Assembly: GCA_035500255.1 (NCBI GenBank)
Contig: DATJXJ010000082.1
Coordinates: 19,188-83,187 of the forward strand
Length of the DNA: 64,000 nucleotides
Source of the DNA: Verrucomicrobiia bacterium
GTDB taxonomy: Bacteria; Acidobacteriota; Terriglobia; Acidiferrales; UBA7541
Direction of reading: 5' to 3'
Part shown: positions 2,871-17,842 of the stretch, piece after piece
Position numbering within the stretch: position 1 is the first letter of the stretch
How the letters are laid out: the number at the start of each line of letters is the position of its first letter
Translations under genes and position numbers: made by a program
The notes under the pieces: generated by a model
Seen by the model: only the letters and a program-made list of their open reading frames with translations
Databases searched by the model: none
What the model was told of the DNA's origin: nothing

Positions 2871-4490
2871 TCAGGACTGCAAGGAGCGCAGCATGCGGCG
2901 CGCGTCGCCGTAGGGATCGTCGACGACTTTGCACTCGTTGTTGAAGATCATTATGGCGCGCCTGGTGGTATCGAAAGCAGGCCAGGCCGGCAGTTCCTTC
3001 GTATTCGGATTGCCCGTGCGCGCGAAGGCGACCCACGCGGCGCTCATCCTGGTCGCGAGCGCGTAGCGGTCCTCGCCGGAACCGGTCATCGACTTTGCGG
3101 CGTCGACGTTATCGAACACGAACGGAATTTCGAGAGTGTGGAATGACCGGAGCTTGCCTTCGCGCACCGGCGATCTCCACGTGAAGTAATACTGATAGAC
3201 GGCGGCCTTGGCTTGATCCGCCTTGCGCTCCGCCTCGACGACGACGCCGGCGCGGAACGTGGCGTCGGAAGCGATGATCAGGAAGATGTCCGTGTTGCCC
3301 GCATTCGGCCGGCCCGCTTTGTAGGTGGCGATCAGTTTGTCGACCTGATCGTCGCTCGCCCCGCGGAGCGTCTGTTTCACGTGCGCGTGGAGACTGGCGT
3401 CGTCGATGGGATCGAGGATCTGAGTGGTGATGAATGTGACTTCCGTTTCAACGGAGCCGATCAGCAGCGGCACATTGGCCGACAGTTCGGGCGCAGCCGG
3501 ATCGAACGGATTCGTCGGAAGCGTCGTGCCGTCGACGACGGGCGACAGAGCCAGTCCCGGCAGGCCAAACAGCCCTCCGCCCGTGGGGGCGAGCAATTGG
3601 TCGGTTGAAAGTTTTTCGAGTTGATCCACCTGGTTCGGTTTGAGGTTCAGCTTCGAAAGAAGCAGCTCGGTGGACTTGTTCGCCGCGTCGATGGGAACGC
3701 CCCGCAGCGCCGCCCCGCTTTGCACGATCGCGCGATGAAACAGGCCCTTTGCCGCAGGCATCGCCATCAGCGTGCTGACTTTCCCTCCGCCGCCGGACTG
3801 GCCGAAGATCGTCACGTTGCCCGGGTCGCCGCCGAACGCCGCGATATTGTCGCGCACCCATTCGAGCGCCGCGATAATGTCAAGATTGCCGACATTGCTC
3901 GAATGCGCGTACTTTTCCCCGCCGATTCCCGCGAGATAGAGATAGCCGAGCGCCGACAGACGGTGATTGAGCGTGATCGCAACGACGTCGTGTTTCTTCG
4001 CGAGCTGCAAGCCGTCGTAGCAGATGAAGCCGCCGGAACCGCTGGTGAATCCGCCGCCGTGGAGCCAGACCATCACGGGGCGCTTGCGAGCCGCGCCGAT
4101 TCCCGGCGTCCACACGTTAAGCATGAGGCAGTCCTCGCTCATGGGTTCGTCGCGGTCCATGACCTCGACTTCCGGCGGGACTGCGCCGTGGAACGAGCTG
4201 AGCAGTTGAGGAGAACGCGGACCGAGTTCGAAGCAGTCGCGGACGCCGGTCCACGGTTCGCGCTTCTTCGGAGGCATGAATCGGTTTTCGCCGGCGGTCG
4301 ACGCGGCGTAGGGAATGCCCTTGAACGCGTGAACTTTGTCCTGGAGGGTTCCGCGAATTTTCCCGGCGGCGGTGGAAACGGTCGCTCCGGGCACAGGTTT
4401 CGCGTCGTCTCCCAGAGCCCGGCCGAGATTACCGCCGAAAAGGGCGCTCGCGGCGAGCGTGCCAAAACCGATAAATGATCGACGGTCCAT
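2871..4490 (-). CDS. type-B carboxylesterase/lipase, Tat-exported
   Basis: The N-terminus MDRRSFIGFGTLAASALFG looks like a twin-arginine signal. 'WLHGGGF' is an oxyanion-hole motif and 'GQSGGG' a nucleophile elbow (GxSxG), as in the carboxylesterase family. Confidence 0.85.
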   Translation of the reverse strand: MDRRSFIGFGTLAASALFGGNLGRALGDDAKPVPGATVSTAAGKIRGTLQDKVHAFKGIPYAASTAGENRFMPPKKREPWTGVRDCFELGPRSPQLLSSFHGAVPPEVEVMDRDEPMSEDCLMLNVWTPGIGAARKRPVMVWLHGGGFTSGSGGFICYDGLQLAKKHDVVAITLNHRLSALGYLYLAGIGGEKYAHSSNVGNLDIIAALEWVRDNIAAFGGDPGNVTIFGQSGGGGKVSTLMAMPAAKGLFHRAIVQSGAALRGVPIDAANKSTELLLSKLNLKPNQVDQLEKLSTDQLLAPTGGGLFGLPGLALSPVVDGTTLPTNPFDPAAPELSANVPLLIGSVETEVTFITTQILDPIDDASLHAHVKQTLRGASDDQVDKLIATYKAGRPNAGNTDIFLIIASDATFRAGVVVEAERKADQAKAAVYQYYFTWRSPVREGKLRSFHTLEIPFVFDNVDAAKSMTGSGEDRYALATRMSAAWVAFARTGNPNTKELPAWPAFDTTRRAIMIFNNECKVVDDPYGDARRMLRSLQS

Positions 4491-4875
4491 CAGCGTGCCT
4501 CCCGGAAAAATTGGCGATTAGGAGCGTCCTCGGTTGCTTGTTTGCAATCAGTTAGCGCGGGTTCTAATAACTGGAATTGGCGATTAAGAATTTCATAGCC
4601 CAGGAGAGGCTGTCCCGCAAACATCGGCACGGCACCCCACCGTCGCCGCATCGCTTTCCCCCTCGCGGCCGGCTGCTGAACTGCGCAGCAGGCTCGCGCG
4701 ACTGACACTTCATCCCACACCGGCGCCATTCTACTGCACGGCGAGAGAAGTGCAAGCGGGAGAGTATGTGGACTTCGTCGGGGGCCGATCTGCAGCGGCC
4801 GAATTTGCATCGTCATGATGCTTCGCCGCTCTTTTCCGGTATCATGAGTGCTTTCCATCGAAGGGATCAGCGACC

Positions 4876-5277
4876 ATGGCGAAGGCGAAGGAGCTGACTG
4901 TAACGATCGAGGACAAACCGGGCGCGCTTGGCAGGTGTTTTCTCGCCCTCGCGGAACGAGGAGTGAACATTCTGGCGTTCCAATCGTATGTCGAGGAAGG
5001 CGAAAGCTTGACGCGATTCCTGGTGGACGATCTGGCCACCGCCAAGGAAGTGCTCGGCAAGATGCGGATGATTTTCGAAATCACGGACGTCGCGACCGTG
5101 AAGGTGGCGCACAGGCCGGGCGAGCTGGGGCGCGCAGCCGCGCGGCTGGGCGAGAACCACATCAATATCGACTACTCCTACTGCGGCGTGGAGCCGGGGT
5201 CGATGCAGAGCATGCTCGTTTTCGGGGTCGATAACCTGACGAAGGCGGCCACGGTCCTCGACGAACTCGCGGCGTAG
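4876..5277 (+). CDS. ACT-domain protein
   Basis: 133 aa with two ACT-like repeats: 'LTVTIEDKPGALGRCFLALAERGVNILA' and 'VKVAHRPGELGRAAARLGENHINIDY'. Confidence 0.7.
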   Translation: MAKAKELTVTIEDKPGALGRCFLALAERGVNILAFQSYVEEGESLTRFLVDDLATAKEVLGKMRMIFEITDVATVKVAHRPGELGRAAARLGENHINIDYSYCGVEPGSMQSMLVFGVDNLTKAATVLDELAA

Positions 5278-5336
5278 AGAAAGCTCGATTCACTTCGCCT
5301 GGCGCGGGCGCAACCTCTCCGAGAACACTCGAAGCT

Positions 5337-6491
5337 CTAGTTTGCGCGGCCCCAGAGCCTTTTCGAGGCGATGCGGGCGCCCTCCGCGAGGGACTTGAAC
5401 TTCATCCACGAAAACGCGGGGAAAACAGGACCAAAGCCCGCGAACGTGCCGAAGCCGCAGTCGCTGCCCGCAATGACGCGCTCCTTGCCGACCACGTTCG
5501 CATAGCGGATCAGGCGCTGCGCCACGACTTCGGGATGCTCCACGTAGTTCGTGCTTGAAGCGATCACGCCGGGGATCAGGATCTTGTCGTCGGGCAGCTT
5601 GATCTTCGTCCAGGCTTCCCATTCGTGCTCGTGACGAGGGTTGGCGGCTTCGATGAGCAGCGCCATCGGCTTCACCTTGATGGCGATGGGGAAGATCTTC
5701 ATGCAATCCATGTCGTAGATGTGTGTGCCTTCGTAATTTCCCCAGCAGACGTGCAGCCGGACGCGATCGGCCGGAACATTGGCCAGCGCGTGATTCAGAG
5801 CTTCGACTTGCAGCTGGGCGTAGCGCAGAAATTCTTCGTCCGTCAGATTCTTGAAGCGCGAATGGCGCCCCATGGCAAGATCGGGGCAATCGAGCTGCAG
5901 CAGCAAGCCCGACTTCACGATCATTTCGTATTCTTCCCGCATGGCGTCGGCCAGCGCGGCGAGATACGTCTCGTGCGAGGGGTAGTATTCGTTCGGCTGG
6001 AATACGGCGATGGTGCCGGGCGAAACGGAATTCAGAAATCCTTCGACGACGTTCGCCTTTGACAGCGCCTCCTTCATGTGCGCGATATCCAGCTCGACCG
6101 GCTTGAGGTTCTTCACTTTGATCGGGCCCTTGCAGACGGGGCGTTTATAGGTTGCCGAATGGCCCGCTTTCACGAGGCGGTCGCGATATTCCGGAAAGTC
6201 CTCGAGGTCCTGAGGGGTCGGCCGCGCCGAATCGCCTTCAAAGCCCGTGAGGCGGTGGCGGATGTAGGTGGCGTAGCTGATCTTGCTTGTCTCTCCGTCG
6301 CTCACGACGTCGATGCCCGCTTCGGACTGACGCTTGACGAGATCGGCGGCGGCGCGGCGCATGGTTTCGTTGAATACACCTTCGTCGACAGGTTCGCCGC
6401 GGTCCTGCGCGAACAGCAGATCGACAACTTCCTGTGGGCGCGGCAGGCTGCCCACGTGCGTCGTAAGAAAACGGTCCTGGCTCGTCTTCAT
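5337..6491 (-). CDS. cobalamin-independent methionine synthase (MetE C-terminal domain)-like protein
   Basis: The N-terminal 'THVGSLPRP' and the overall 384-aa length match the MetE-like / methionine synthase II family. Confidence 0.7.
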   Translation of the reverse strand: MKTSQDRFLTTHVGSLPRPQEVVDLLFAQDRGEPVDEGVFNETMRRAAADLVKRQSEAGIDVVSDGETSKISYATYIRHRLTGFEGDSARPTPQDLEDFPEYRDRLVKAGHSATYKRPVCKGPIKVKNLKPVELDIAHMKEALSKANVVEGFLNSVSPGTIAVFQPNEYYPSHETYLAALADAMREEYEMIVKSGLLLQLDCPDLAMGRHSRFKNLTDEEFLRYAQLQVEALNHALANVPADRVRLHVCWGNYEGTHIYDMDCMKIFPIAIKVKPMALLIEAANPRHEHEWEAWTKIKLPDDKILIPGVIASSTNYVEHPEVVAQRLIRYANVVGKERVIAGSDCGFGTFAGFGPVFPAFSWMKFKSLAEGARIASKRLWGRAN

Positions 6492-6625
6492 CGGAGGTCC
6501 TTGGAGAAGTGCGTAACAGAGCGGGAGAGAAAATACTCCGCGCGGCGTGACGTTGCAACCACAAATCGGGCGGTCCCGGGACGCCGTTGCGAGGCGGGAA
6601 GTCGTGTGATGTATACTCCGGCACC

Positions 6626-7747
6626 ATGGAACCCATCCAAGCCGATTTCCACTTGAGCAAACTGGAACGAGTCGTCTCGGGCCCGGGGAAAATTGCCGCG
6701 CTGGGCGAGGAGCTGGAGCGGCGCGGATTGCAGCGCGCGATCATTGTGACGGGAAAGTCGCTTGGCGCCTCGCCGCTGCTCGAGAAGGTGAAGAGCGCGG
6801 CGGGATCGCGCGGCGTGGCCGTTTTCAAGGGCGCGCGGCAGCACGTCCCGCGGAGCAGCGTGGATGAACTGCAGGCGCTGATCGAGCGAGAGAGCGCCGA
6901 TGGCCTAGTCAGCTTCGGCGGGGGCAGTCCGATCGACACGTGCAAAGTGGCGAGCTACGCGTTTCTTAACAAGAGAGAAGTGACGCATATTGCCATCCCA
7001 ACCACGCTTTCGGCGGGCGAGTACACGCACGCGGGCGGCGTGACGGATGAGCAGACGCTGGTGAAGTCGGGAGTGTCCGATCCGCGGTTGCAAGCAAGGA
7101 CGGTGATCAACGATCCGGCGCTGACTTTGGAAACGCCGAATTGGCTATGGATCGCGACCGGCATGCGTGCGCTGGATCACGCGATCGAGACGATCTACAC
7201 GCCGAGGCACCATCCGCTGAGCGACGCGCTGGCGTCGAAGGCCATCGCGCTGCTGGTGGAGCACCTGCCGGCTTCCATCCACACGCAGGGGATGGAGCGG
7301 CTGGCTCATCGCGGGAGTTGCCAATTCGCGGCGTGGTTTTCGATCTACGGTTCGATGAACACGCGGTTCGGAATTTCGCACCTGCTGGGACATCAGATCG
7401 GGCCGCGGTGGAACGTGGCGCACGGGGTCACTTCGTGCATCACGCTGCCCCATGCGATGCGATTCATGGCGGGAATCGCGCCGGAGCGGTTTGGCCCGAT
7501 TGCGGAGGGATTTCGCGTTCCGTTCGATCCGGCGAAACCGAAGGCGGCGGCGCTCGCGTGCGCGGAGCGAACGGCGGACTTCGTCGCGCAGTTCGACGTG
7601 CCCCGCTCCTTGAAGGATGCGGGCGTGCCTCGCGCGGAGATCACCCAGATCGTTCCAACAGTGCTGCACGAGTTGGAGAAATCGGGAGTGGTCGACCGGC
7701 CGGTGACGGCTCAGGATGTAACGGCGTTGCTGGAAGCGGCGTACTAG
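6626..7747 (+). CDS. iron-containing alcohol dehydrogenase / maleylacetate reductase family
   Basis: 'IIVTGKSL' and 'SFGGGSPIDTCK' (GGGS nucleotide motif) plus a His-rich metal region 'HLLGHQIGPRWNVAHG'. Start taken at ATG 6626 (MEPIQ..). Confidence 0.75.
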   Translation: MEPIQADFHLSKLERVVSGPGKIAALGEELERRGLQRAIIVTGKSLGASPLLEKVKSAAGSRGVAVFKGARQHVPRSSVDELQALIERESADGLVSFGGGSPIDTCKVASYAFLNKREVTHIAIPTTLSAGEYTHAGGVTDEQTLVKSGVSDPRLQARTVINDPALTLETPNWLWIATGMRALDHAIETIYTPRHHPLSDALASKAIALLVEHLPASIHTQGMERLAHRGSCQFAAWFSIYGSMNTRFGISHLLGHQIGPRWNVAHGVTSCITLPHAMRFMAGIAPERFGPIAEGFRVPFDPAKPKAAALACAERTADFVAQFDVPRSLKDAGVPRAEITQIVPTVLHELEKSGVVDRPVTAQDVTALLEAAY

Positions 7748-7859
7748 CGCAGGCTCAGGGTGAAGAGAGATTCTTCGACTTCGCGTCTCGGCGCGGAGAT
7801 CGAAATGCGATCTCCGGAACAGCAAACCGCCGAGACGCTCCGCGCAGAATGACGAGCGC

Positions 7860-8942
7860 TTACTTGTTTGCCGGCTTGTCGCCGCCGATGAAGACCGCGC
7901 TGGTGCGCCGCGACGCGCCGGTCGGCGACGCCTCGGATGAGGCAACGGCCGGTGCAGCCTTCACGGGAGCCTTCATGCCGCCCGGGAAATTGCTCTCGGG
8001 AACCTTGATCGGCTCGAGCATCGCCTCGATTTCCGCTCGCCGCGCTTCGAACCACGGCGGAAGAAGCAAACTCTGACCGAGCTGGTCCGCGGGTTCATCG
8101 ACGGCAAATCCCTGCGGCACGGTGGCAGCGCACTCAACCAGAATTCCGCCCGGGCAGCGGCAATAGACCGAGTGGAAGTACATGCGGTCTTTGATTTCCG
8201 AAGCGTCGGTGTAGCCGAGCTCTTCGTAGATGCCTTTCTGCTCGGCAAGCTTTTCGTCGTTTTCCACTTCGAGCGCCATGTGGTGCGCGGTGCCAGCGCC
8301 GAAAATCCAGCTGCCCGACGGGCGCTCAGGTTCATGCAACAAAGTCACCGTCTTGTTGGGGCCGCCCTTGCCGATTTCGTAGCGGTGATAGGGGCCTTCC
8401 TGTCCGGTCTTCTTGAAGCCGAGCGCGTCGATGAAGAAACGCTCGGTCTCCGCGATCTCGCGGACCGAGAGGACCGGGCCGTGAAATCCGCGCGTGGCCA
8501 CGTCGCCGCTCACTTCTCCAACCGACCAGGGCTTGCGGGTATCAGAGCTGTCTTCGAAGACTTCCAGCTGGATGCCTGATGGATGATCGAAGCGGATGAA
8601 TTTTTGGCCGAACCGCTCCTCAATCCCGTTGTTCTTCACCTTGTGGCGGTTCAAATGTTCCAACCAGAATTTCAGAGAGCCTTTGGGGACCGAATACGCG
8701 GTCGACTGAATTTGCCCGGAACCTTGGCGCCCCCGCACACGTCCATAGGGAAAGGTCGTGTAGACGGAACCCGGCTCGGCATTCGCATTCGCGTAATACA
8801 GGTGATAGTGAGCATAGCGGCCATCGAAGAGAACCGTTTGCTTGATCATGCGCTGACCGAAAATCCTGGTCTGGAAGTCGATATCTTCCTGGGCGCCACC
8901 CACGCACACCGTCATGTGATGAAGACCCTTGACGAGAGACAT
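7860..8942 (-). CDS. VOC/glyoxalase-family ring-cleaving dioxygenase
   Basis: Two VOC modules, 'GLHHMTVCVG' and 'GFHGPVLSV', plus 'GTAHHMALEV'. The architecture is typical of MhqO/YfiE-like extradiol dioxygenases. Start taken at MSLVKGLHH. Confidence 0.75.
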   Translation of the reverse strand: MSLVKGLHHMTVCVGGAQEDIDFQTRIFGQRMIKQTVLFDGRYAHYHLYYANANAEPGSVYTTFPYGRVRGRQGSGQIQSTAYSVPKGSLKFWLEHLNRHKVKNNGIEERFGQKFIRFDHPSGIQLEVFEDSSDTRKPWSVGEVSGDVATRGFHGPVLSVREIAETERFFIDALGFKKTGQEGPYHRYEIGKGGPNKTVTLLHEPERPSGSWIFGAGTAHHMALEVENDEKLAEQKGIYEELGYTDASEIKDRMYFHSVYCRCPGGILVECAATVPQGFAVDEPADQLGQSLLLPPWFEARRAEIEAMLEPIKVPESNFPGGMKAPVKAAPAVASSEASPTGASRRTSAVFIGGDKPANK

Positions 8943-9137
8943 GAAGCTTACCTCCGTGCGCGGAGTGTACCACAAGTGGCTTGGGGCGGCGGGGCGGCCG
9001 GCCGAGCGCCGGCGACCGGCGTGCGCGAAAATTCAGCGTGGCCCGATGCGGAAAAACGGTGATCGCGGGCGCGACTTTTGTGATACAAGTTGGGGCCGAT
9101 CCGGCGGACACTGGGCGGGAGTTCGCGGGGGAGTGAC

Positions 9138-10034
9138 ATGGGTGGAATCGCTCGGGCGAGACTCCTGAGCATTGGGGCTTTGTTCGTTTTCCAAGCAGCG
9201 CTGATGGTGCGGCCGGCGGCAGCACAGCTGGATCCCTCCGGAATGTGGGCTCCGCGATTCGATGAAGATTGGGAAGAGAGGATCCCGGGTCCCGAGATTG
9301 GCGACTACCTCGGATTGCCGATCAACGCAGCGGCAAGGCTGAGGGGCGACAGTTGGGACGCGGCGCTGGTGGAGCTCCCCGAGAATCAGTGCCGGGCGCA
9401 CGGCTCGGATTACGGCTGGCGCGGCCCGTCGAACCTGAGCATCTGGAAAGAGGTCGACCGACCGACGCAGAAACTGATCGCGTATCACACGCATCTTTCC
9501 GCGTACGGCGCCGAGCAGACGATCTGGATGGACGGGCGGCCGCATCCGCCGGAATACGCCGCGCATACGTGGGCGGGATTCTCGACGGGCGAATGGGACG
9601 GCGACGCGCTGGTGATCACGACCACGCATCTGAAAGAGAACTGGATTCGGCGCAACGGAATTCCTCGCAGCGACCTGGCGACGGCGCGGGTGCACGTGCT
9701 GAAACACGGCAACTATCTGACGGTGGCTGTGATCGTGTATGACCCGGTGTATTTGACCGAGCCGTTCGTTCGCACGACGGATTTCGCTTTCGCGCCGCAG
9801 CAGCAGATGGCTCCGTGGCCGTGCGAAGTCGTGGATGAAGTGGACCGCCCGGCGGGGGTCGTGCCCAGCCATTTGATCGGCGCGAATCCGTTTCTGGACG
9901 AGTTTCCGGCGAACTACGGTATACCTCCCGAAGCAGCGAGAGGCGGCGCCGAGACGGCGTATCCGGAATACATGCTCAAGATGAAAGACATGAAACGATT
10001 GCCGCGTCCGGCAAAGAAGGTTACGAACCGATGA
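9138..10034 (+). CDS. secreted protein of unknown function (paralogue 1 of 2)
   Basis: An SD (GGGGGAG) precedes ATG 9138, which gives the signal peptide MGGIARARLLSIGALFVFQAALMVRPAAA|Q. It shares 'QC', 'W.G.S.G.W.G', 'IRRNGIP', 'DPVYL.EPF' and 'PCE' blocks with 11606..12424. Confidence 0.7.
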   Translation: MGGIARARLLSIGALFVFQAALMVRPAAAQLDPSGMWAPRFDEDWEERIPGPEIGDYLGLPINAAARLRGDSWDAALVELPENQCRAHGSDYGWRGPSNLSIWKEVDRPTQKLIAYHTHLSAYGAEQTIWMDGRPHPPEYAAHTWAGFSTGEWDGDALVITTTHLKENWIRRNGIPRSDLATARVHVLKHGNYLTVAVIVYDPVYLTEPFVRTTDFAFAPQQQMAPWPCEVVDEVDRPAGVVPSHLIGANPFLDEFPANYGIPPEAARGGAETAYPEYMLKMKDMKRLPRPAKKVTNR

Positions 10035-11083
10035 CGGCCATGGGCAGGAAGACTTCGCGCAGCGTGAGAATGAGATTCGCGGTATGGACGTTGAGCGCCG
10101 CTCTCGTCCCTTTCTGCACGGCAGTGAGTACGGCGCGCGCGCAGCAAAGTTCGAGTCAGGCTCCGAGCGCGCCGCCGGCGCGGGACTATTCGAAGGCGGA
10201 AGTTCACATACTGCCGGTGCAGGGCAACATCTACATGCTGGTCGGCGCGGGCGGGAACATAACTGCGCAGGTGGGGAATGACGGCGTGCTGCTGGTGGAC
10301 ACCGGCGTGACTCAGATGAGCGACAAAGTGCTGGCCGCAGTTCGCAGCCTTTCGGACAAGCCGATTCGCTACATCATCAACACGCACATGCATGCGGATC
10401 ACACGGGCGGAAACGAGCCGATTGCCAAGGCGGGCAGCACGATTGCCGGAGGCAACGTGGTGGGCGACATTGGCGCAAGCGCGGGCAATCAGGCCACGGT
10501 GCTGGCGTTCCAGAACGTGCTGGACCGGATGAGCGCGCCGACCGGACAGCAGGCGCCGACGCCGCAAGGCGCATGGCCCACCGAGACGTACACGACTCCC
10601 GAGCGAAAACTCTTCTTCGACGGCGAAGGGATCCAAGTGATCCACATTCCCGAGGCGCACACGGATGGGGACAGCATTGTCTTCTTTCGGCGGTCCGATG
10701 TGATCAGCACGGGCGATATTTTCGTGACCACGGGCTATCCTCTCGTGGACTTGCAGCACGGCGGCAACATTCAGGGCGTGATCGCGGGACTGAACAAGAT
10801 CGTCGAGCTGGCGATCCCGGCGGATGAGCAGGAAGGCGGCACGATGATCATTCCCGGCCATGGACGGTTGTGCGACGTGGCCGACGTCGTTTTTTACCAG
10901 GAAATGGTGACGATCATCCGCGACCGAATTCAGGACATGATCAAGAAGGGGATGACGCTCGAGCAGGTGAAGGCGGCGAAGCCCACGCTTGACTACGATC
11001 CGCGCTACGGATCGACGACCGGTTTCTGGACGACGGACAAGTTTGTAGAAGCCGTGTACAAGAGTCTGGCTCCGAAGCAGTAG
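10031..11083 (+). CDS. exported MBL-fold metallo-hydrolase
   Basis: The start overlaps the upstream stop (ATGA). It has a signal peptide ending ..STARA|QQ and an HxHxDH motif 'NTHMHADHTGGN'. Confidence 0.85.
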   Translation: MTAMGRKTSRSVRMRFAVWTLSAALVPFCTAVSTARAQQSSSQAPSAPPARDYSKAEVHILPVQGNIYMLVGAGGNITAQVGNDGVLLVDTGVTQMSDKVLAAVRSLSDKPIRYIINTHMHADHTGGNEPIAKAGSTIAGGNVVGDIGASAGNQATVLAFQNVLDRMSAPTGQQAPTPQGAWPTETYTTPERKLFFDGEGIQVIHIPEAHTDGDSIVFFRRSDVISTGDIFVTTGYPLVDLQHGGNIQGVIAGLNKIVELAIPADEQEGGTMIIPGHGRLCDVADVVFYQEMVTIIRDRIQDMIKKGMTLEQVKAAKPTLDYDPRYGSTTGFWTTDKFVEAVYKSLAPKQ

Positions 11084-11099
11084 AGGACGCCGGGGCGCA

Positions 11100-11129
11100 C
11101 GGACAAGCTTGCTTTCGCCGCGCTATAAT
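11100..11129 (+). promoter_or_regulatory. sigma-70-type promoter candidate
   Basis: Perfect -10 TATAAT at 11124-11129 and -35-like CGGACA at 11100-11105, with an 18-nt spacer. It lies about 28 nt upstream of ATG 11157, and GGGAGG (SD) sits between them. Confidence 0.45.
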
Positions 11130-11156
11130 AGTTGCATCGGTTTGGGAGGTGGTTCC

Positions 11157-11543
11157 ATGAAGCGCGCATTTCTGGCGGTGGCGATCGTTGCCGCCCTGGC
11201 AGCCGGCGGTCGGGCATACGCACATCATTCCTTTGCAGCGACCTACTTCGTCGACCAGGAAGTCACGGTGGAAGGGACGCTCACGCAGTTTCTGTACCGC
11301 AATCCGCATTCGTTCATAAAAGTCGAGGGGAAAGACGACAAGGGCGAGACCGTGACGTGGTCCGTGGAGTGGGGCGGCGGGGCACAATTGACGCAGGAGC
11401 ACGTGACCCGGGACACGCTGAGGCCCGGCGATCACGTGATTGTTTCGGGAAATCCCGGCCGCGATCCTTCCGAGCACAGGATTCGCTTGCACAAGATCGT
11501 CCGTCCCGCGGACGGCTGGAAGTGGGAAGGCGTGATCATGTAG
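11157..11543 (+). CDS. small periplasmic protein (DUF6152-like), predicted mature N-terminus His-His
   Basis: SD GGGAGG, then signal peptide MKRAFLAVAIVAALAAGGRAYA|HHSFAATYF with an AxA cleavage site. The mature protein of about 105 aa looks beta-rich. Confidence 0.7.
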   Translation: MKRAFLAVAIVAALAAGGRAYAHHSFAATYFVDQEVTVEGTLTQFLYRNPHSFIKVEGKDDKGETVTWSVEWGGGAQLTQEHVTRDTLRPGDHVIVSGNPGRDPSEHRIRLHKIVRPADGWKWEGVIM

Positions 11544-11605
11544 CGCGCTCTCCCGGCGAATCGGGAGAGGATGTGGGCAGTGGGTGGGGACCCCGGGGGC
11601 GAGAC

Positions 11606-12424
11606 ATGGGTTTGATTGCGTTCGTGAGACGTAGTGAGCTGCCGCTGGCTATCATGGCCTTGGCGTTGCTGGCGGCGCCCAGCCACGTTGGCGCGCAAAT
11701 CGGTTTCGCTCCTTCCGGCGGCCCCGCGAACGCCCGTGCAGGCGCTCCCGTCGACATGACCGGATACTGGGTTTCCCTCGTCACCGAAGACTGGCGCTAT
11801 CGAATGCTAACTCCCGACAAGGGAGACTATCCCGGCATTTTCCTCACGCCGGAGGGCATGCGCGTCGCGAACTCCTGGGATCCGGCTAAGGATGAGGCGG
11901 CGGGAGAGCAGTGCAAGTCGTATGGCGCCGGCGCGATCATGCGCGTTCCAACGCGGCTGCACATCACTTGGGACAACGACACGACATTGCGCGTTGAAAC
12001 GGACGCGGGAAAGCAGGTCCGGCTGTTCCATTTCGGAGGAAGCGATGTGCCGAAGGGCGAGGCGCCTTCCTGGCAGGGTTATTCTTTGGCGAGCTGGGAA
12101 GGGCTGAGGCCGCGGGGATTCGGATTGCCAACGGTGGCGTCCGGCGGAGCGAGGGTGGCCCACCACGATGAGGGATATCTGAAGGTGACCACGAAAGACT
12201 TGCGGCCCGGGTACATCCGAAAGAACGGCGTGCCGTACGGCGCGAACGCGGTGGTAGAAGAGTATTTCGACAGCTTCACGGAACCCAACGGGGATACATG
12301 GCTCGTGGTGACGTCGGTGGTCACCGACCCCCAGTATCTGGCGCAACCCTACCTGACGAGTTCGCAGTTCAAGAAGCTTCCCGACGCCTCCGGGTGGAAT
12401 CCCATGCCGTGCGAGGCGAAGTAG
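11606..12424 (+). CDS. secreted protein of unknown function (paralogue 2 of 2)
   Basis: ATG 11606 gives the signal peptide MGLIAFVRRSELPLAIMALALLAAPSHVGA|Q. The blocks 'EQCKSYG', 'YIRKNGVP', 'DPQYLAQPY' and 'PCEA' align with 9138..10034. The upstream part of the 11132 ORF overlaps the previous gene and is discounted. Confidence 0.7.
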   Translation: MGLIAFVRRSELPLAIMALALLAAPSHVGAQIGFAPSGGPANARAGAPVDMTGYWVSLVTEDWRYRMLTPDKGDYPGIFLTPEGMRVANSWDPAKDEAAGEQCKSYGAGAIMRVPTRLHITWDNDTTLRVETDAGKQVRLFHFGGSDVPKGEAPSWQGYSLASWEGLRPRGFGLPTVASGGARVAHHDEGYLKVTTKDLRPGYIRKNGVPYGANAVVEEYFDSFTEPNGDTWLVVTSVVTDPQYLAQPYLTSSQFKKLPDASGWNPMPCEAK

Positions 12425-12498
12425 ATCCACGGCCGCTGCCTGGCGCAGGGGCGCGATCGACGGCCAGTCCGCAGAGCGGTCTTTCCGGGGTGTGACGG

Positions 12499-13005
12499 AT
12501 GTGGCTTTCTAACTTCTTGCAGTGGCTTGCCGACACGCAGTTCAGCACGACGATGCGCGAATCGGTGTGGGCCGAGCCGATCGTCGAAACGATCCACGTA
12601 CTGACGCTCACGCTGTTTCTGGGTTTCGCCGTGCTGCTCGACTTGAGGCTGCTGGGCGTCTGCCTGACGCGCAAGCGGGTATCCGAAGTGCTCGCGCAAT
12701 TCAATCCGTGGCTCTTCGGCGGATTTGCCGTGATGATCGTTACGGGCGTGCTGCTCTTCTGCGGCGATCCGGTCTCCTTCTACCACACCAAGCCGCCGTT
12801 TTTCATCATCAAGATGGTGATGCTGGTGCTCGCCGGCCTGAACGTGATCATTTTCAATCTGACGCTGGGGAGAAAAGTGGCCGAGTGGGATGCGGACAGC
12901 AAGACGCCGCGGGGTGCAAAGATGGCGGGCGTCGTATCGATTGTGCTGTGGGTACTGATTGTGGCAGCGGGACGAGCGATCGCATACGCCCTTCCGCCCC
13001 CCTGA
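12499..13005 (+). CDS. 4-TM membrane protein, tandem paralogue A (DUF6644-like / CopD-like?)
   Basis: Four hydrophobic helices. Motifs shared by all four copies: 'P.VE..H' in TM1, 'LDLRLLG', 'PW', 'TG..LF..DP' and a C-terminal 'GRAIA'. Confidence 0.7.
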   Translation: MWLSNFLQWLADTQFSTTMRESVWAEPIVETIHVLTLTLFLGFAVLLDLRLLGVCLTRKRVSEVLAQFNPWLFGGFAVMIVTGVLLFCGDPVSFYHTKPPFFIIKMVMLVLAGLNVIIFNLTLGRKVAEWDADSKTPRGAKMAGVVSIVLWVLIVAAGRAIAYALPPP

Positions 13006-13020
13006 GGAGGCTCGTTGCAC

Positions 13021-13545
13021 ATGTGGTTTCGTCATCTGGTGCTGACGTTCTGCCAGTGGTGCAACAATTCGTTCTTCGGACACGGCATCCGGAACTCCGT
13101 GTGGTTGTTTCCGTTTGTCGAAATATTCCATCTGCTCGGCCTCGGCATTTTGGGAGGAACGCTGCTGGTGCTGAATCTGCGCCTGCTCGGCCTCGGATTT
13201 CGCGGGGAGAGAACCTCAGAGCTTGAGAGAGACTTCCGCCCGTGGATACTGGGAAGCCTCGGCGTGATGCTGATTTCGGGCTTCCTGCTCTTTTCGACCG
13301 AAGCCGTGAAGATGTACGGCAACTGGGCGTTTCGCTGGAAGATGCTGTTCCTGCTGTGCGCGATCGTCTATACGTTCACAATCTACCGAAGGGTCGTGAT
13401 CTCGGATGAGACGCGCGTGACGGTGACGTGGCGCGTGGTAGCAGCTCTGCTTTCAATCATGCTGTGGGCCGGAGTCGGGCTCGGTGGCCGGGCGATCGGC
13501 TATGTGACCACGTCCGTGAGTTCGGTAAGCACTTCTGGACAGTAA
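13021..13545 (+). CDS. 4-TM membrane protein, tandem paralogue B
   Basis: SD GAGGAGG at 13004-13010, 10 nt before ATG 13021. Motifs 'FPFVEIFH', 'LNLRLLG' and 'GRAIGY'. Confidence 0.7.
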   Translation: MWFRHLVLTFCQWCNNSFFGHGIRNSVWLFPFVEIFHLLGLGILGGTLLVLNLRLLGLGFRGERTSELERDFRPWILGSLGVMLISGFLLFSTEAVKMYGNWAFRWKMLFLLCAIVYTFTIYRRVVISDETRVTVTWRVVAALLSIMLWAGVGLGGRAIGYVTTSVSSVSTSGQ

Positions 13546-13578
13546 GGAATAAGCGCTCGAAGTCGAGAGCAACCATCG

Positions 13579-14055
13579 ATGCTTCTCACTTTCATCTTGC
13601 AGGGAACCCCTGAAGCGATTCCTCTGAATCCGATCGCGCGATGGGAGTGGGTATTCCCGATCGTCGAGTCGCTCCACATCTGCGGTTTCGTGCTGCTGGT
13701 GGGGACCGCCGTGATTCTCGATCTTCGTCTGCTCGGGATTGTCTTGCGAGGGCAACCGGTTTCGCGGCTTGCCAGAGAGCTGTCGCCATGGATCTGGGCA
13801 GGCCTGGCGATTCAGCTGGTCACGGGGCCGTATCTTTTCTCCGGCGATCCGCGCGAATACGTTCAGATCACAGCGTTCCGCGTAAAGATGCTGCTTTTCG
13901 CGCTGGCTTTGGTCTACCAGTTCACCGTGATCCGAAAAGCAGCCGCGTCCGCCGAGCCGGCCGGCGACTTGGGCTGGCGCAAGCCGGCGGCGATCGTGTC
14001 GCTGGGGCTTTGGCTTGGCGTGATGGTGGCGGGGATGTGGATCGGGAATCTGTAA
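13579..14055 (+). CDS. 4-TM membrane protein, tandem paralogue C
   Basis: Motifs 'FPIVESLH', 'LDLRLLG', 'PW' and 'TGPYLFSGDP'. The C-terminal motif is degenerate (GMWIGNL). Confidence 0.7.
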   Translation: MLLTFILQGTPEAIPLNPIARWEWVFPIVESLHICGFVLLVGTAVILDLRLLGIVLRGQPVSRLARELSPWIWAGLAIQLVTGPYLFSGDPREYVQITAFRVKMLLFALALVYQFTVIRKAAASAEPAGDLGWRKPAAIVSLGLWLGVMVAGMWIGNL

Positions 14056-14085
14056 CGCGGCCGTGGCACGAGGGAAACTTCTGGA

Positions 14086-14574
14086 ATGTCGCTCCTGAGA
14101 TTCTGCGAATGGTTGAGCCAGACGGACTTCAGCATCTGGCTTCGCGAAGCTCCCTATCCGTTTCCAGTGCTGCTGATGGTCCATTTGCTGACGATCGGAA
14201 TTGTGGGGGGCATGGTCGCGATGGGGAATCTGCGAGTGCTGGGATGGGCGATGCGCGATGTGCCCGTGTCGCAGGTAGTCGGCCAGTTTCGGCCGTGGAA
14301 ATGGGCCGCGTTCGTCGTGTTGCTGCTGACGGGCCTGCTGCTTTGCGCGTCCGATCCGATGGAATATTACGGCAACAAAATGTTCTGGATTTCGAATGGG
14401 ATTCTGGCGCTTGCGGGTGTAAATGCGCTCGTCTTTCGATACGGAATCTACCGAAGCGTGAACGAATGGGATACCGCGACTGAAACGCCCGGGCGCGCAA
14501 GACGCTGGGCGGGCGTCTCATTGTTGCTCTGGATCGCCTTGATCTTTGCGGGAAGAGCGATCGCCTTCTTCTGA
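14086..14574 (+). CDS. 4-TM membrane protein, tandem paralogue D
   Basis: Motifs 'FPVLLMVH', 'GNLRVLG', 'RPW', 'TGLLLCASDP' and 'GRAIAFF'. The N-terminus 'FCEWLSQTDFS' parallels 'FLQWLADTQFS' in copy A. Confidence 0.7.
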   Translation: MSLLRFCEWLSQTDFSIWLREAPYPFPVLLMVHLLTIGIVGGMVAMGNLRVLGWAMRDVPVSQVVGQFRPWKWAAFVVLLLTGLLLCASDPMEYYGNKMFWISNGILALAGVNALVFRYGIYRSVNEWDTATETPGRARRWAGVSLLLWIALIFAGRAIAFF

Positions 14575-14603: not shown

Positions 14604-17282
14604 CTACAATCCGATGTAATACTGAAAGGGCGCCCAGTAAAAGGGCCGCTGATACACGCCGTTCGAATGAAGCAGAGCAAGCTTCGCGTTTCGGAGCGCG
14701 ACCGCGGGATCTTTCCCTTTGCTCATCTGGCCGTACAAATCACCCATCAAACGCGCGGTGGAAGCGTCATTGACGTCCCAAAGCGCCGCAATCACACTGC
14801 GCGCACCAGCCCTTAGAAACGCCCAGGACAATCCGACCAGGCCTTCTCCCGAATAGTTTCGCGATCCCACGCCGTGGCATGCGGAGATGGTGACCAGTTC
14901 CGCTTTCAGAGGATGCCGCACCACGTCGCGCCCGTAGAGCTTGAAGGAGTCACCCTGCCGACTCAGGATCACGGCAGATTCGAGCGGCCGGGCGCGGCTC
15001 GAGGTGCCGTGCGCGACAAAATGAATGAACGCAAACTGGCCCGGGTTGCTATCGACATATGCCTGTGCCGTCGCGCTGCTGCCGGATAGAACGCGCGTGT
15101 CCGGGGATGGAAAGTACTTTTCGATGCTCGCCATTTCGGCCGCAGCTTGCGGCAGCTGGGGAAAATCGCTGCCGGGCGAAACGGGATCGCCGATCAGCAG
15201 CAGCTTGCCGTGCATCGTCGCCGTGGCGCGACGCGCGGCGGCGACGAGGATCAGGGAATCCGAATAGGTGATGGTAGCGTCCTCGATCCAGTAGTGCGGC
15301 ACGGGCTCGGGCGCGAGCAGCGTCTCGAAATTAAGGCCGCACAGACTGCCGTCCGGCACGATCACGACGCGCGATCCCTTGGGGATCAGATCCTGCGCCG
15401 GAGCGACGAGCATTTTGTAGAGGGCGGTTCCGCTGGAATTCGCGGTTTGCAGGACGTCGCGCGGGCCGAGCAGCGCTCCGGCGTACGATTGCACGGCTGC
15501 ATCGATTTGTTCGGCCGGGGCCAGGAAGAAAATCCTAAGCCGGCCCGAGGGCAGGATCGCCCAGAGATAGGAATGACGCGAACCGAGCCAGTAGCAGAGA
15601 ATCACCGCGTCCTGACGCCGCGCGGCGCCTTTCCAGTCTTCAGGCGTGAGGCGCGCGAGCCCCTTTTCAGGATCGAGCCCGAGCCCTTCGACGAGCGTGC
15701 GTGCACGCGTCAGAGCGGCGAGGCGCAGGGCGTCCTCTGCGCGGTTCTGGGAGACGAGGAATTCCAAATAGTCGTCGTACAGCTCGGCGGCATTGGCGAG
15801 AAACGGAATACGAAGCTCCTCCGACTGGACTGAACGCCTTGCCGCCTCAAGCGTGTCGACGGCTCCGCGAAACTCGCGCTCCGCGGCCGCCGGATTGCCC
15901 GCGTCTGCGTAGACGGAGGCGAGACGAGCCTGTGCCTCCCAGCGAAGAGATGGGGTTGCGGCTGGATCGGCGATCACGCCGTTCAAGATCTGCACGGCAC
16001 GCTGACGATTGTGCCGGCCGCCCTCAATGCGGGCCGCGGTGATTGTCGATGCAAGCTCGCCATTGCGATCTTGCGCGGCTCGCGACAGGCGCAGCGCTTC
16101 CCGGTTTTCTGAATCGGCGGCGTCGAGCCGGTCGCGCGCCAGGTCGATGTCCGAGAGTGAGCGAAGCGATTGCGCGATTCCGACATTTTGGTCCTGCTGC
16201 CGCGCCAGGTTCAGGGCGCTGCGAATCTCGGATTCCGCGTCGCCGAAGTCGCGCCGGTAGGAGTCGACCGAGCCCACATTGATGCGCCAGAGGAGCTGAT
16301 CGCCGAGATTGCCTTCTTTCGCCGCCGATTCCTCTGCCTGTTGGAAGAGCGCGCGGGAGTTTTCGTAGTCGCCCAGCTCGAAGTAGCTCCACGCCATGTT
16401 GCCGAGCGTCTTGGTGGCGGACGTGCGCGCGCCAATCGACTGCGCGAGACTCAGCGCGGCCGTGTTCCACTGGATCGACTCGTCGTAGTGCTCCTGCTGC
16501 GCCGCGGTGAGCCCGAGACTGCCGAGCGCGGCCGCTTCGAGAAACGGATCCTTTTGCTCGCGCGCGATTCGAAGGGAATCGCGATAGGCGAGCGCGGCAT
16601 GCGCAGAATCATCGCGGAGGAAACAGAGAGTCCCTTTGCGCAGGGCGACTTCGCCGAGCAGCTCGGGATGAAACCTTTCAGCGAGCGCTTGCGCCTCGCC
16701 CAAACGCGCGTCGGCATCGGCAAACTGAGAGAGGAAACCGTCCGCGGCGGCCTGTGACATCTTGCGCCACACGGCGAGATCGGAGGTGCCGAGCGTCACC
16801 GGCAGTTGCGGCTGGAGCAGATCCAGCGCCTCTTGATTGCGCCGCTGCCGAACCAGAATCTCGGCTTTCAGCGCGCGAAATCTCCAGTTCCATTCCGCCG
16901 CGGGGTCGGGAAACGCGCGGAGCTGCAGATCCGCCTGCTGAAGAGCGTCCTGCCATTCTCCGCGCTTCAGCTTGAGCCAGGTGTCCCTATATATCTGATC
17001 CGGGGGGACGGATGGCGGGCGCTTGCATGCGGCGCATGCAAGCGCGATTGCGGCGAGGAGAAATCCTATGGCCAGGGACTGCCATTGACGGTGGCCTGGG
17101 CGGCGACCACGGTGCCGCTCGAGGGAGAGCCCATCTCGAGGCGAAGCATCGTGAGCGTGCGGCTGCCATGCCGCGCGAGCATTTCGGCGACGTAGACTCG
17201 GCCAAACTCGGGCACGACGAAGCAATGTCCGCGACGCGTTACGCCCGGGCACGTCGTCTTCATGTCTTTCACGAGCGAGCAA
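14604..17282 (-). CDS. TPR-repeat CHAT-domain (caspase-like) protease with N-terminal hydrophobic anchor; start codon uncertain
   Basis: C-terminal CHAT signature: 'FIHFVAHG' (His), 'VTISACHG' (Cys), 'WDVND' and 'PFYWAPF'. The central ~500 aa consists of TPR-like repeats. The hydrophobic segment 'LAIGFLLAAIALACAAC' follows an Arg-rich stretch. I see no ATG/GTG/TTG in frame between roughly 17228 and the hydrophobic segment, so the annotated start (TTG 17282) overlaps the upstream gene. Confidence 0.8.
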   Translation of the reverse strand: MLARERHEDDVPGRNASRTLLRRARVWPSLRRRNARAAWQPHAHDASPRDGLSLERHRGRRPGHRQWQSLAIGFLLAAIALACAACKRPPSVPPDQIYRDTWLKLKRGEWQDALQQADLQLRAFPDPAAEWNWRFRALKAEILVRQRRNQEALDLLQPQLPVTLGTSDLAVWRKMSQAAADGFLSQFADADARLGEAQALAERFHPELLGEVALRKGTLCFLRDDSAHAALAYRDSLRIAREQKDPFLEAAALGSLGLTAAQQEHYDESIQWNTAALSLAQSIGARTSATKTLGNMAWSYFELGDYENSRALFQQAEESAAKEGNLGDQLLWRINVGSVDSYRRDFGDAESEIRSALNLARQQDQNVGIAQSLRSLSDIDLARDRLDAADSENREALRLSRAAQDRNGELASTITAARIEGGRHNRQRAVQILNGVIADPAATPSLRWEAQARLASVYADAGNPAAAEREFRGAVDTLEAARRSVQSEELRIPFLANAAELYDDYLEFLVSQNRAEDALRLAALTRARTLVEGLGLDPEKGLARLTPEDWKGAARRQDAVILCYWLGSRHSYLWAILPSGRLRIFFLAPAEQIDAAVQSYAGALLGPRDVLQTANSSGTALYKMLVAPAQDLIPKGSRVVIVPDGSLCGLNFETLLAPEPVPHYWIEDATITYSDSLILVAAARRATATMHGKLLLIGDPVSPGSDFPQLPQAAAEMASIEKYFPSPDTRVLSGSSATAQAYVDSNPGQFAFIHFVAHGTSSRARPLESAVILSRQGDSFKLYGRDVVRHPLKAELVTISACHGVGSRNYSGEGLVGLSWAFLRAGARSVIAALWDVNDASTARLMGDLYGQMSKGKDPAVALRNAKLALLHSNGVYQRPFYWAPFQYYIGL

Positions 17283-17842
17283 AGCAAGACACCTCGCGGG
17301 TCCGGCAGCTTGACGGGTTCGCCTGACTGAAAGGGATCCTCGGCCATTTTCCGAAATTGGGGATTGTTTGCAAGTTCATTCGACAGGGCGTCGAACGTCT
17401 TCAGGCGAAGGAAGAAGTCGTGGTCGAATTCGACGTCGACACGGCAGCCGGCGATCTGCAGATTCTCAAACTTGCTGCCAAGCAGAACGACGTTTGGCTC
17501 GCGGCTTTCCCAGGGATGCTGGGTGGCCAGACGAGCGACCACACGGTCGGCCGTCACAACGTCGAGAATGTTCAGGCCTTCGACGGTCGAGGTGACCAGC
17601 GTGGTGTACGCGCCGTCGACGGGATTGTGGCTGCCCGACACGGCGGAATAGGCTGCCTTGAACGAGACGAACTCCTGAAAGCTGAACTTTTCCACGCGCG
17701 CGTGGCCATGCCCTCCGGTCGTGGGAAGTGAGGTGCCCGCCTGCACTTCGATCAGGTGTTCGACAGGCCGATGAAACTGTCCGCTGAGACCGTGCCCGTG
17801 GGCATTGTAGTGATACGTCTGCTTGGAGGCCGAAGTGCTCAT
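17066..17842 (-). CDS. hypothetical cytoplasmic protein, His/Gly-rich N-terminus
   Basis: 258 aa with SD AAGGAAGGA upstream of ATG 17842 and no signal peptide. The N-terminus carries 'HYNAHGHG' and 'GGHGHAR'. I recognise no family. Confidence 0.6.
   Translation of the reverse strand: MSTSASKQTYHYNAHGHGLSGQFHRPVEHLIEVQAGTSLPTTGGHGHARVEKFSFQEFVSFKAAYSAVSGSHNPVDGAYTTLVTSTVEGLNILDVVTADRVVARLATQHPWESREPNVVLLGSKFENLQIAGCRVDVEFDHDFFLRLKTFDALSNELANNPQFRKMAEDPFQSGEPVKLPDPRGVLLCSLVKDMKTTCPGVTRRGHCFVVPEFGRVYVAEMLARHGSRTLTMLRLEMGSPSSGTVVAAQATVNGSPWP

Follow-up and report, generated by a model that had tools for sequence, protein, structure and literature searches.

The 64,000-nucleotide window analysed here belongs to contig DATJXJ010000082.1 of an assembly deposited as Verrucomicrobiia bacterium (GCA_035500255.1). 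On its forward strand, between positions 9138 and 14574, lie eight consecutive open reading frames (ORFs), all of which encode exported or membrane proteins. This arrangement had been reported in a preliminary description made from the DNA alone, and the ORF listing, the public gene calls on identical contigs and a hydropathy scan agree on it. The cluster opens with P1 (9138-10034), a secreted protein of a family without a name that is called P here, and continues with an exported hydrolase of the metallo-beta-lactamase (MBL) fold (10031-11083), a small secreted DUF6152 protein with a predicted oligonucleotide/oligosaccharide-binding (OB) fold (11157-11543), P2, a secreted paralogue of P1 (11606-12424), and four inner-membrane DUF6644 proteins, T1 (12499-13005), T2 (13015-13545), T3 (13579-14055) and T4 (14086-14574). 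Product lengths according to the public gene calls are 298, 350, 128, 272, 168, 174, 158 and 162 amino acids; these calls start T2 at 13021, and the starts given here for DUF6152 and P2 come from the DNA reading. According to the hydropathy scan, P1, MBL, DUF6152 and P2 each have a single hydrophobic segment, at the N-terminus, the DUF6644 proteins have four transmembrane (TM) segments each, and the products of two neighbouring catabolic genes (VOC and Fe-ADH, see below) have none. P1 and MBL share four nucleotides, ATGA (10031-10034), in which the start codon of MBL overlaps the stop codon of P1; gene calls show such an overlap in two related loci as well (L007 and L009; related loci carry L numbers throughout), in line with the translational coupling of the two genes predicted earlier.

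The spacer between MBL and DUF6152 contains a perfect TATAAT (11124-11129), which had been taken to split the cluster into two probable transcription units. The hexamer is real and forms part of a promoter-like CGGACA-18-TATAAT on the forward strand (11100-11129, 10/12 consensus matches). The proposed split is nevertheless weak, as promoter-like sites occur in the region at the level of chance (2 found, 1.4 +/- 1.2 expected) and the motif is shared only by the window and its closest relative, L013. In Steroidobacteraceae the corresponding spacer measures 10-26 nt and is therefore too short for a promoter. On these three grounds we rejected a conserved internal promoter.

Protein families of the envelope cluster

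P1 and P2 are paralogues as previously proposed (BLASTP E = 6e-21, 26% identity over 233 residues), with every motif quoted in support and both cysteines aligned. An alignment of 65 family members shows no variation at these cysteines, C103 and C269. P1 has more than 5000 homologues at E <= 1e-3, of which the best 120 are 70-100% identical and either unnamed or labelled 'hypothetical' in their sources, and P2 matches 2680 representative clusters at the same threshold. P1 is the nearer of the two to the superfamily consensus TDGRxHP...GxSxGxWEGDxLVV. Profile searches against Pfam and NCBIfam returned zero matches for P1 and P2, none of the 65 aligned members (0/65) had a meaningful Pfam match, three distant P-like proteins matched nothing in Pfam or NCBIfam, and a P-family profile had no match among PDB sequences. 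As the remaining components other than MBL are domains of unknown function, and a literature search found no paper mentioning DUF6152 or DUF6644, the description of the cluster as built from uncharacterised families is borne out. The AlphaFold2 model of P2 reaches a predicted local distance difference test (pLDDT) score of 75 overall and exceeds 90 in an 8-stranded up-and-down barrel formed by the C-terminal 150 residues; the N-terminal region is poorly predicted and an insertion of about 20 residues is of low confidence. Foldseek matched this model weakly to avidin/streptavidin-like barrels (E about 0.03, probability 0.9-0.96, TM-score 0.45-0.5, identity below 12%).

The MBL protein matches Pfam Lactamase_B (PF00753) with 68.3 bits against a threshold of 22.7 and carries a complete HxHxDH...H...D...H metal-ligand set (H119-M-H121-A-D123-H124, H205/H210, D229 and H277), which assigns it by sequence to the metallo-beta-lactamase superfamily. 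Among 79 cluster-linked homologues D123, H124, H205, D229 and H277 are nearly invariant, and about 58 of the 79 retain H119 and H121, as the window protein does. The first two His positions of HxHxDH are taken by Asp, Thr, Ser, Asn or Arg in about a quarter of the homologues, which may represent a sub-branch with an altered first metal site. The best NCBIfam model is TIGR04559 (quinoprotein relay system zinc metallohydrolase 2), which scores 94.1 bits, below its cut-off of 280. The PDB entries matched include 8d2z (1e-12), on which a literature search for the code gave nothing useful, and the chlorothalonil hydrolytic dehalogenase Chd (6uxu, 2e-8). The NCBIfam models of class B (B1/B2/B3) beta-lactamases gave at best 45.5, 42, 31.7 and 30.1 bits with cut-offs of 100-240, and a beta-lactam resistance enzyme was rejected on these scores. 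MBL belongs to no named subfamily.

DUF6152 (PF19649) was assigned with 79.8 bits (E = 1.7e-22, gathering threshold 27), and public copies are annotated as 'DUF6152 family protein'. The motif A|HH(S/G/A), where the bar marks the predicted signal-peptidase site, is invariant in all homologues examined, and an (N/A/M)PH motif and a conserved Glu are present in nearly all, distant paralogues and alphaproteobacterial copies included. The window protein accordingly has a predicted mature N-terminus of His-His and a conserved NPH motif. Its AlphaFold2 model (pLDDT 77) is an OB fold in which the His-His segment is of low confidence, and Foldseek returned only generic OB folds (lysyl-tRNA synthetase, single-stranded DNA-binding protein) and no metallochaperone. 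L093 (14683-15075) contains a second DUF6152 paralogue, a divergent one with the mature N-terminus HHG and the motif GNPHC, whose gene is convergent and comes right after a TonB-dependent receptor gene. This arrangement recurs in L016 (around 16614), L029 (around 15538) and L030 (around 15581), and we call all four clusters 'type B'.

All four 4-TM proteins score above the DUF6644 gathering threshold of 27 bits (PF20349; T1 to T4: 40.4, 56.4, 37.1 and 47.1 bits). T4 is the paralogue nearest to CopD (PF05425, gathering score 32.1) with 26.3 bits; T1 follows with 17.3 bits and also matches DUF2214 weakly, and T2 and T3 have no CopD match. One His, at the periplasmic end of TM1, is invariant, and Arg, Pro, Gly, Ser and Trp positions are conserved. 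The N-terminus is predicted to face outwards because Lys and Arg are concentrated in loops 1-2 and 3-4. A DUF6644 profile gave only a spurious match in the PDB (E = 0.05). CopD proteins typically have eight TM helices and two conserved His for copper uptake, both of which are needed in the E. coli CopD protein YebZ; truncated four-helix proteins, in which the first of these His alone is retained, make up about 35% of CopD-family sequences (PMC11923076). With four TM helices and one periplasm-facing His, DUF6644 looks, in its sequence features, like this truncated class. The earlier statement that no catalytic motif is recognisable outside MBL therefore needs qualification, since the His-His and NPH motifs of DUF6152 and the invariant TM1 His of DUF6644 are candidate functional motifs.

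Distribution and gene order in other genomes

We assembled 80 loci anchored on P2 homologues from a collection with one genome per species and searched their six-frame ORFs with the window proteins; antisense artefacts that arose from greedy ORF selection in these high-GC loci were disregarded. MBL was found in 76 of these loci, P1 in 73, DUF6152 in 43 and DUF6644 in 28, and the most frequent gene order was P1-MBL-(DUF6152)-P2. The loci come from Acidobacteriota, Steroidobacteraceae and others. DUF6644 is present in four copies in the lineage of the window and in two elsewhere. Some genomes contain a full cluster together with a core-only triad, for instance L015/L025 in JARLGK01 and L027/L022 in DATDIT01. 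The core of the system is thus P1-MBL-P2, with DUF6152 and DUF6644 as accessories. The eight genes had been described as one envelope cluster, and while the cluster is real, it proved to be modular and also larger than described, as the catabolic genes at 2871-8975 travel with it. The preliminary description had left open whether the components keep together in other genomes; P1-MBL-P2 does so in about 73-76 of the 80 loci and P-like proteins, DUF6152 and DUF6644 do so in Alphaproteobacteria. Because the components are syntenic elsewhere, the objection that they are neighbours in this genome only does not hold.

The most similar copies did not follow taxonomy. P1, MBL and DUF6152 of Steroidobacteraceae (Gammaproteobacteria; L038, L041, L043, L048 and L053) are 78-79% identical to those of the window, and for the copies from Bryobacterales (L050-L091), which like the closest relatives of the window belong to Acidobacteriota, identity is no more than about 60%. 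In the same comparison P2 and DUF6644 show lower conservation (about 60%). That the Steroidobacteraceae copies are closer than those of Bryobacterales indicates that the block moved between phyla by horizontal transfer.

P1 homologues 73-76% identical to the window protein were also observed on their own, without MBL or P2. In L001 (8001-11128) the gene next to the solo P1 encodes a pyrroloquinoline quinone (PQQ)/cytochrome c dehydrogenase; in L004 (6292-10024) P1 has a serine carboxypeptidase S10 gene on one side and an inosine-uridine nucleoside hydrolase gene on the other, with an intradiol dioxygenase nearby; and in L104 (7001-7897) it lies among PcpA-like, Meth_synt_2, GcvT-type and Amidohydro_2 genes. 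Given these varied settings, P1 may partner with several periplasmic enzymes.

Searches of plasmids by tblastn gave no match with P2 and several with DUF6152, all of the latter discussed here being in cultured Alphaproteobacteria. Croceibacterium atlanticum encodes two consecutive DUF6152 proteins, a 'hypothetical' protein and a TonB-dependent receptor. In Novosphingobium humi a gene for a 'hypothetical' protein overlaps one for DUF6152 and is faced by two DUF6644 genes, and Sphingobium sp. TomTYG65 has hypothetical, DUF6152, hypothetical and DUF6152 genes opposite two DUF6644 genes and a TonB-dependent receptor gene. Profile-profile comparison placed these 'hypothetical' proteins in the P family (probabilities 94-98%, E down to 4e-13), and they retain the Cys pair, G-x-S-x-G-x-W-E-G-D and DP...P(W/Y). 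Similarly, Novosphingobium sp. PP1Y combines P-like, DUF6152 and DUF6644 proteins with a TonB-dependent receptor. In Azospirillum brasilense Sp7, DUF6152 and a single DUF6644 gene form a bare pair behind a LysR regulator, without P or MBL, and divergent DUF6152/P-like pairs occur elsewhere in loci from metagenome-assembled genomes (MAGs). P, DUF6152 and DUF6644 thus form a recurrent combination, and the acidobacterial P1-MBL-P2 arrangement represents one elaborated form. TonB-dependent receptors are also encoded in 22 of the 80 P2-anchored loci; NCBIfam typing of three of the associated receptors pointed to no specific subfamily.

The doubled P-like/DUF6152 set on the Sphingobium sp. TomTYG65 plasmid (L098, 1-14243) is surrounded by genes for a taurine dioxygenase (tauD_1), a sulfonate ABC substrate-binding protein, an alkanesulfonate monooxygenase, further monooxygenases and a peroxiredoxin, an organosulfur context unlike the hydroquinone context of the window.

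Catabolic neighbourhood

Upstream of the cluster, four genes encode enzymes suggestive of aromatic catabolism. Closest to P1 lies a gene for a cytoplasmic ring-cleaving enzyme with a two-domain vicinal oxygen chelate (VOC) fold (7860-8975, reverse strand). Residues 15-321 of its product match 2,6-dichloro-p-hydroquinone 1,2-dioxygenase (4huz, E = 5.6e-75), and MhqO is matched as well (3oaj, E = 5.5e-61), which identifies it from sequence comparison as a predicted PcpA/MhqO-type hydroquinone dioxygenase. Next to it is a gene for a cytoplasmic, maleylacetate-reductase-like enzyme (6587-7747, forward strand; Pfam Fe-ADH and ADH_Fe_C), whose best PDB match is 9ph0 'MAR1' (3.9e-44), followed by lactaldehyde reductases (about 4e-34) and the maleylacetate reductases 3hl0 and 3w5s (about 1e-24). 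The third gene (5337-6491, reverse strand) encodes a MetE-like protein with the Meth_synt_2 catalytic domain (Pfam, 51.7 bits; PDB 1ypx, E = 1.4e-6), for which a methyl-transfer or demethylation step is possible. The fourth (2871-4490, reverse strand) encodes an exported carboxylesterase (Pfam COesterase, 340 bits) with a twin-arginine-like leader (MDRRSFIGFG...).

Homologues of these genes recur among the 80 loci in at least three gene orders: the Fe-ADH protein in 19, the MetE-like protein in 11 and the carboxylesterase, within 10 kb and in three different gene arrangements, in 19. The VOC gene was found in 21 of the 28 loci with DUF6644 versus 1 of the 52 without. In Steroidobacteraceae the VOC protein is only 41% identical to that of the window and its gene is placed elsewhere in the locus, which argues for independent recruitment rather than simple co-inheritance. 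Other loci present different aromatic genes. For example, a PnpCD hydroquinone dioxygenase, an aldehyde dehydrogenase, an AraC regulator and a major facilitator superfamily transporter flank the core in L009 and L026; a thiolase and two CoA-transferase subunits (PcaF/PcaIJ-like) come after the cluster in L103; and a LigB dioxygenase, a methylenetetrahydrofolate reductase-like protein and an IclR regulator adjoin the module in Novosphingobium sp. PP1Y. Regulators of the MarR, TetR, AraC, IclR and LysR types, as commonly found with catabolic operons, adjoin the module. The most economical reading of this neighbourhood is that the envelope genes serve a catabolic route for hydroquinone-type or hydroxylated aromatic compounds.

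DUF8021 proteins of about 320-350 amino acids recur around aromatic loci containing P1 (L103, 1233-2186; L104, 3464-4414 and 12599-14649; three times in L104). These uncharacterised proteins may belong to the same metabolic context.

The remaining flanks of the window are less informative. Convergent to the cluster, a large CHAT-domain/TPR protein is encoded on the reverse strand (14604-17282), its start overlapped by a 258-aa ORF on the same strand (17066-17842); the CHAT gene is shared solely with L013 and is therefore probably outside the system. Upstream of the catabolic genes lie a 387-aa ORF (21-1184) and a 310-aa ORF (1121-2053) whose product has a signal-like N-terminus and resembles an outer-membrane beta-barrel. 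A public DUF6152 protein 100% identical to that of the window (P0391) carries the NCBI source name 'Verrucomicrobiae bacterium' MAG. The close genomic relatives of the cluster are all Acidoferrum/Acidiferrales, and a binning or taxonomy conflict with the NCBI name may exist.

Possible roles and relation to known systems

Gene content, synteny, paralogy, conserved residues and topology are established for this cluster, the folds are assigned with moderate confidence, and the periplasmic processing or uptake suggested in the preliminary description is a putative function. On this basis we favour, tentatively, a composite reading that we consider plausible without calling it probable, in which P1-MBL-P2 would serve as the front end of a hydroquinone-type pathway, binding and hydrolysing its substrate in the periplasm, and DUF6152 and DUF6644 would form a CopC/CopD-like pair. 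In the first module, MBL would act as a periplasmic binuclear-metal hydrolase flanked by two secreted P-family beta-barrels, which would bind a phenolic substrate of low solubility, or its product, for presentation to the enzyme. The ligand binding by P1 and P2 and the substrate class of MBL are inferred, as are the metal binding by DUF6152 and the transport by DUF6644 described below. In many relatives the substrate would enter through the co-encoded TonB-dependent receptor, and the exported carboxylesterase would work alongside MBL. The hydroquinone-like product released would then be cleaved in the cytoplasm by the PcpA-type dioxygenase and channelled through the maleylacetate-reductase-like enzyme into the beta-ketoadipate route. 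In the second module, the N-terminal His-His of DUF6152, together with the His of the NPH motif, would bind a metal ion, and the protein would dock on heteromeric, four-helix, truncated-CopD-like DUF6644 proteins with their single invariant periplasm-facing His. At or across the inner membrane, DUF6644 would in turn move this ion or a metal-phenolate species. The P-family proteins would be the recurrent partner of the DUF6152/DUF6644 pair.

Several observations weigh against this composite reading. For P2, a 'ligand-binding barrel' is a fold-class inference only, because the Foldseek matches are weak. The likeness of MBL to characterised enzymes is generic and its scores fall far under every NCBIfam cut-off. 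DUF6152 is related to CopC neither in sequence (no Pfam match) nor in fold (OB, not CopC-like), its N-terminal His hinges on a predicted signal-peptidase cleavage site, and DUF6644 scores under the CopD gathering threshold. As for the metabolic context, many core-only loci, mostly from Bryobacterales, contain no ring-cleavage gene among the queries used, the correlation between VOC and DUF6644 may stem in part from shared ancestry or whole-island transfer, and the alphaproteobacterial contexts are heterogeneous (G8-domain proteins, a GH39-like protein, ssu/tauD sulfur genes).

An alternative that we regard as unlikely, although it covers every component in a single scheme, is that the whole cluster serves the acquisition of a metal, copper-like or Ni, Zn or Fe. 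A TonB-dependent receptor would import a phenolic or catecholate chelate, P proteins would shuttle it, MBL and the esterase would destroy the carrier, DUF6152 would capture the ion and DUF6644 import it, and the ring-cleavage genes would dispose of the aromatic remains. The invariant N-terminal His-His and the PH motif of DUF6152, the CopD-like character and periplasmic His of DUF6644, the receptors in 22/80 loci and three alphaproteobacterial loci, the second DUF6152 adjoining a receptor in L093 and a three-part analogy to E. coli YobA-YebZ-YebY are all consistent with such a role. However, the most conserved part of the system, P1-MBL-P2, often occurs without DUF6152 or DUF6644, the adjoining regulators are of the catabolic types listed above with no Fur, Zur or CueR type seen, the TonB-dependent receptors score under the cut-off of all metal-specific NCBIfam models, and no chelator biosynthesis genes were noticed.

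Quite improbable, in our view, is a haem redox relay, in which DUF6644 heteromers would bind haem b via the TM1 His and exchange electrons with the quinone pool, with benzoquinones reduced or hydroquinones oxidised at P, DUF6152 or MBL. The substrate class suggested by the context is indeed the redox-active hydroquinone/quinone pair, each 4-TM subunit has one invariant His and the subunits come in pairs or quartets, PQQ/cytochrome c dehydrogenases are encoded nearby in 11/80 loci as well as beside a solo P1, and the best NCBIfam matches of MBL are 'quinoprotein relay system' hydrolases. Yet no DUF6644 protein has a Pfam match to haem-binding families or HemJ, no cytochrome c is conserved in the cluster, and a single DUF6644 gene suffices in Azospirillum. 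The 4-TM protein HemJ, which binds haem b via a His of TM1, offers a parallel, but a literature search on HemJ and CopD found nothing and one on HemJ and haem yielded nothing that could be cited for such a relay. That the genes form no functional unit at all, being neighbours by vertical inheritance or, in the case of MBL, an ordinary lactonase or beta-lactam resistance enzyme with no link to the flanking genes, is hardly credible: component functions still lack assignment, the TATAAT could separate two units and MBL weakly matches class B beta-lactamase models, but about 90% of loci, from several phyla, preserve the P1-MBL-P2 order, with apparent inter-phylum block transfer, the modules re-associate in different gene orders, P1 and MBL are ATGA-coupled, the beta-lactamase models all score far below cut-off (e.g. 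45 versus 100 bits), and the TATAAT is not conserved.

Going beyond the composite reading, P, DUF6152 and DUF6644, usually with a TonB-dependent receptor, could constitute an unrecognised envelope-spanning import route, in which the OB-fold protein would hand a metal or metal-phenolate to truncated-CopD-type channels, the acidobacterial MBL would dismantle the phenolic carrier and the hydroquinone skeleton would be burned as carbon. We consider this distinctly unlikely; if true, it would provide a first function for the large 'truncated CopD' class and for three orphan families, and would show that soil bacteria couple the acquisition of metals with the breakdown of aromatic compounds. The remaining probability falls to functions beyond the readings listed here. 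Whichever applies, the three families have thousands of members without an assigned function, are abundant in Acidobacteriota of peat and forest soil and in Steroidobacteraceae, and form a recurrent, horizontally mobile module tied to hydroquinone/beta-ketoadipate catabolism. Cultured hosts that are open to genetic work carry the module (Novosphingobium, Sphingobium, Croceibacterium and Azospirillum brasilense Sp7), and this makes the question accessible to experiment. Such work could clarify the role of 4-TM 'truncated CopD-like' proteins and the uptake or detoxification of phenolic and quinone compounds by soil bacteria.

The individual parts resemble known kinds of systems, namely MBL hydrolases, the CopC/CopD logic, TonB-linked catabolic uptake and hydroquinone pathways. 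With the last of these (PcpA/PcpE of pentachlorophenol degradation, MhqO, Pnp/Hap), the window shares the VOC homologue and the maleylacetate-reductase-like Fe-ADH protein, and relatives of the cluster carry PnpCD or PcaIJF-like genes instead. The upstream enzymes of known hydroquinone pathways are cytoplasmic (monooxygenases, glutathione S-transferases, esterases), and none of these pathways is known to involve a secreted MBL, P-family proteins, DUF6152 or DUF6644. The SoxH-related TIGR04559/04558 hydrolases and Chd are, like MBL, exported MBL-fold enzymes of similar length and provide its best NCBIfam and PDB similarities. In contrast to them, MBL scores far below the family cut-offs (94 versus 280 bits; E = 2e-8 for Chd), lies in an unlike gene context and lacks any established specific shared motif. 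The confident 8-stranded up-and-down barrel of the P2 model recalls calycin-type periplasmic barrels (avidin, lipocalin, YceI class), whereas P proteins are twice as large and have in addition a conserved N-terminal region and the Cys pair.

A His exposed at the N-terminus by signal cleavage is a known metal-chelating device and is paired with permeases in anglerases (PMC12537917) and in CopC/YcnI systems (PMC8424229, PMC12362106). In CopC and other periplasmic histidine-brace proteins this His coordinates Cu by its amine and imidazole, together with a further His. DUF6152 has in common with the anglerase domains on HupE/UreJ permeases a secreted domain, an invariant His1 after the signal peptide and a small permease partner. 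Anglerase domains, however, have an Ig-like rather than an OB fold and are fused to a permease of a different family, whereas DUF6152 and DUF6644 are encoded by separate genes, and DUF6152 is absent from the signal-strapping paper that describes anglerases and from its supplements (PMC12537917). A further parallel is with CopC/CopD pairs such as the E. coli YobA-YebZ-YebY (AZY) operon and B. subtilis YcnI/YcnJ, where an N-terminal-His periplasmic protein likewise lies beside a helical-bundle membrane protein with a periplasm-facing His. In the E. coli operon a third periplasmic protein, YebY, modulates uptake, and we propose P as its possible counterpart. Unlike these pairs, the cluster combines an OB-fold protein with membrane proteins of four instead of eight TM helices, encoded by 2-4 paralogous genes, adds a P family and an MBL that have no counterpart in CopCD, and is set in aromatic catabolism rather than in copper homeostasis.

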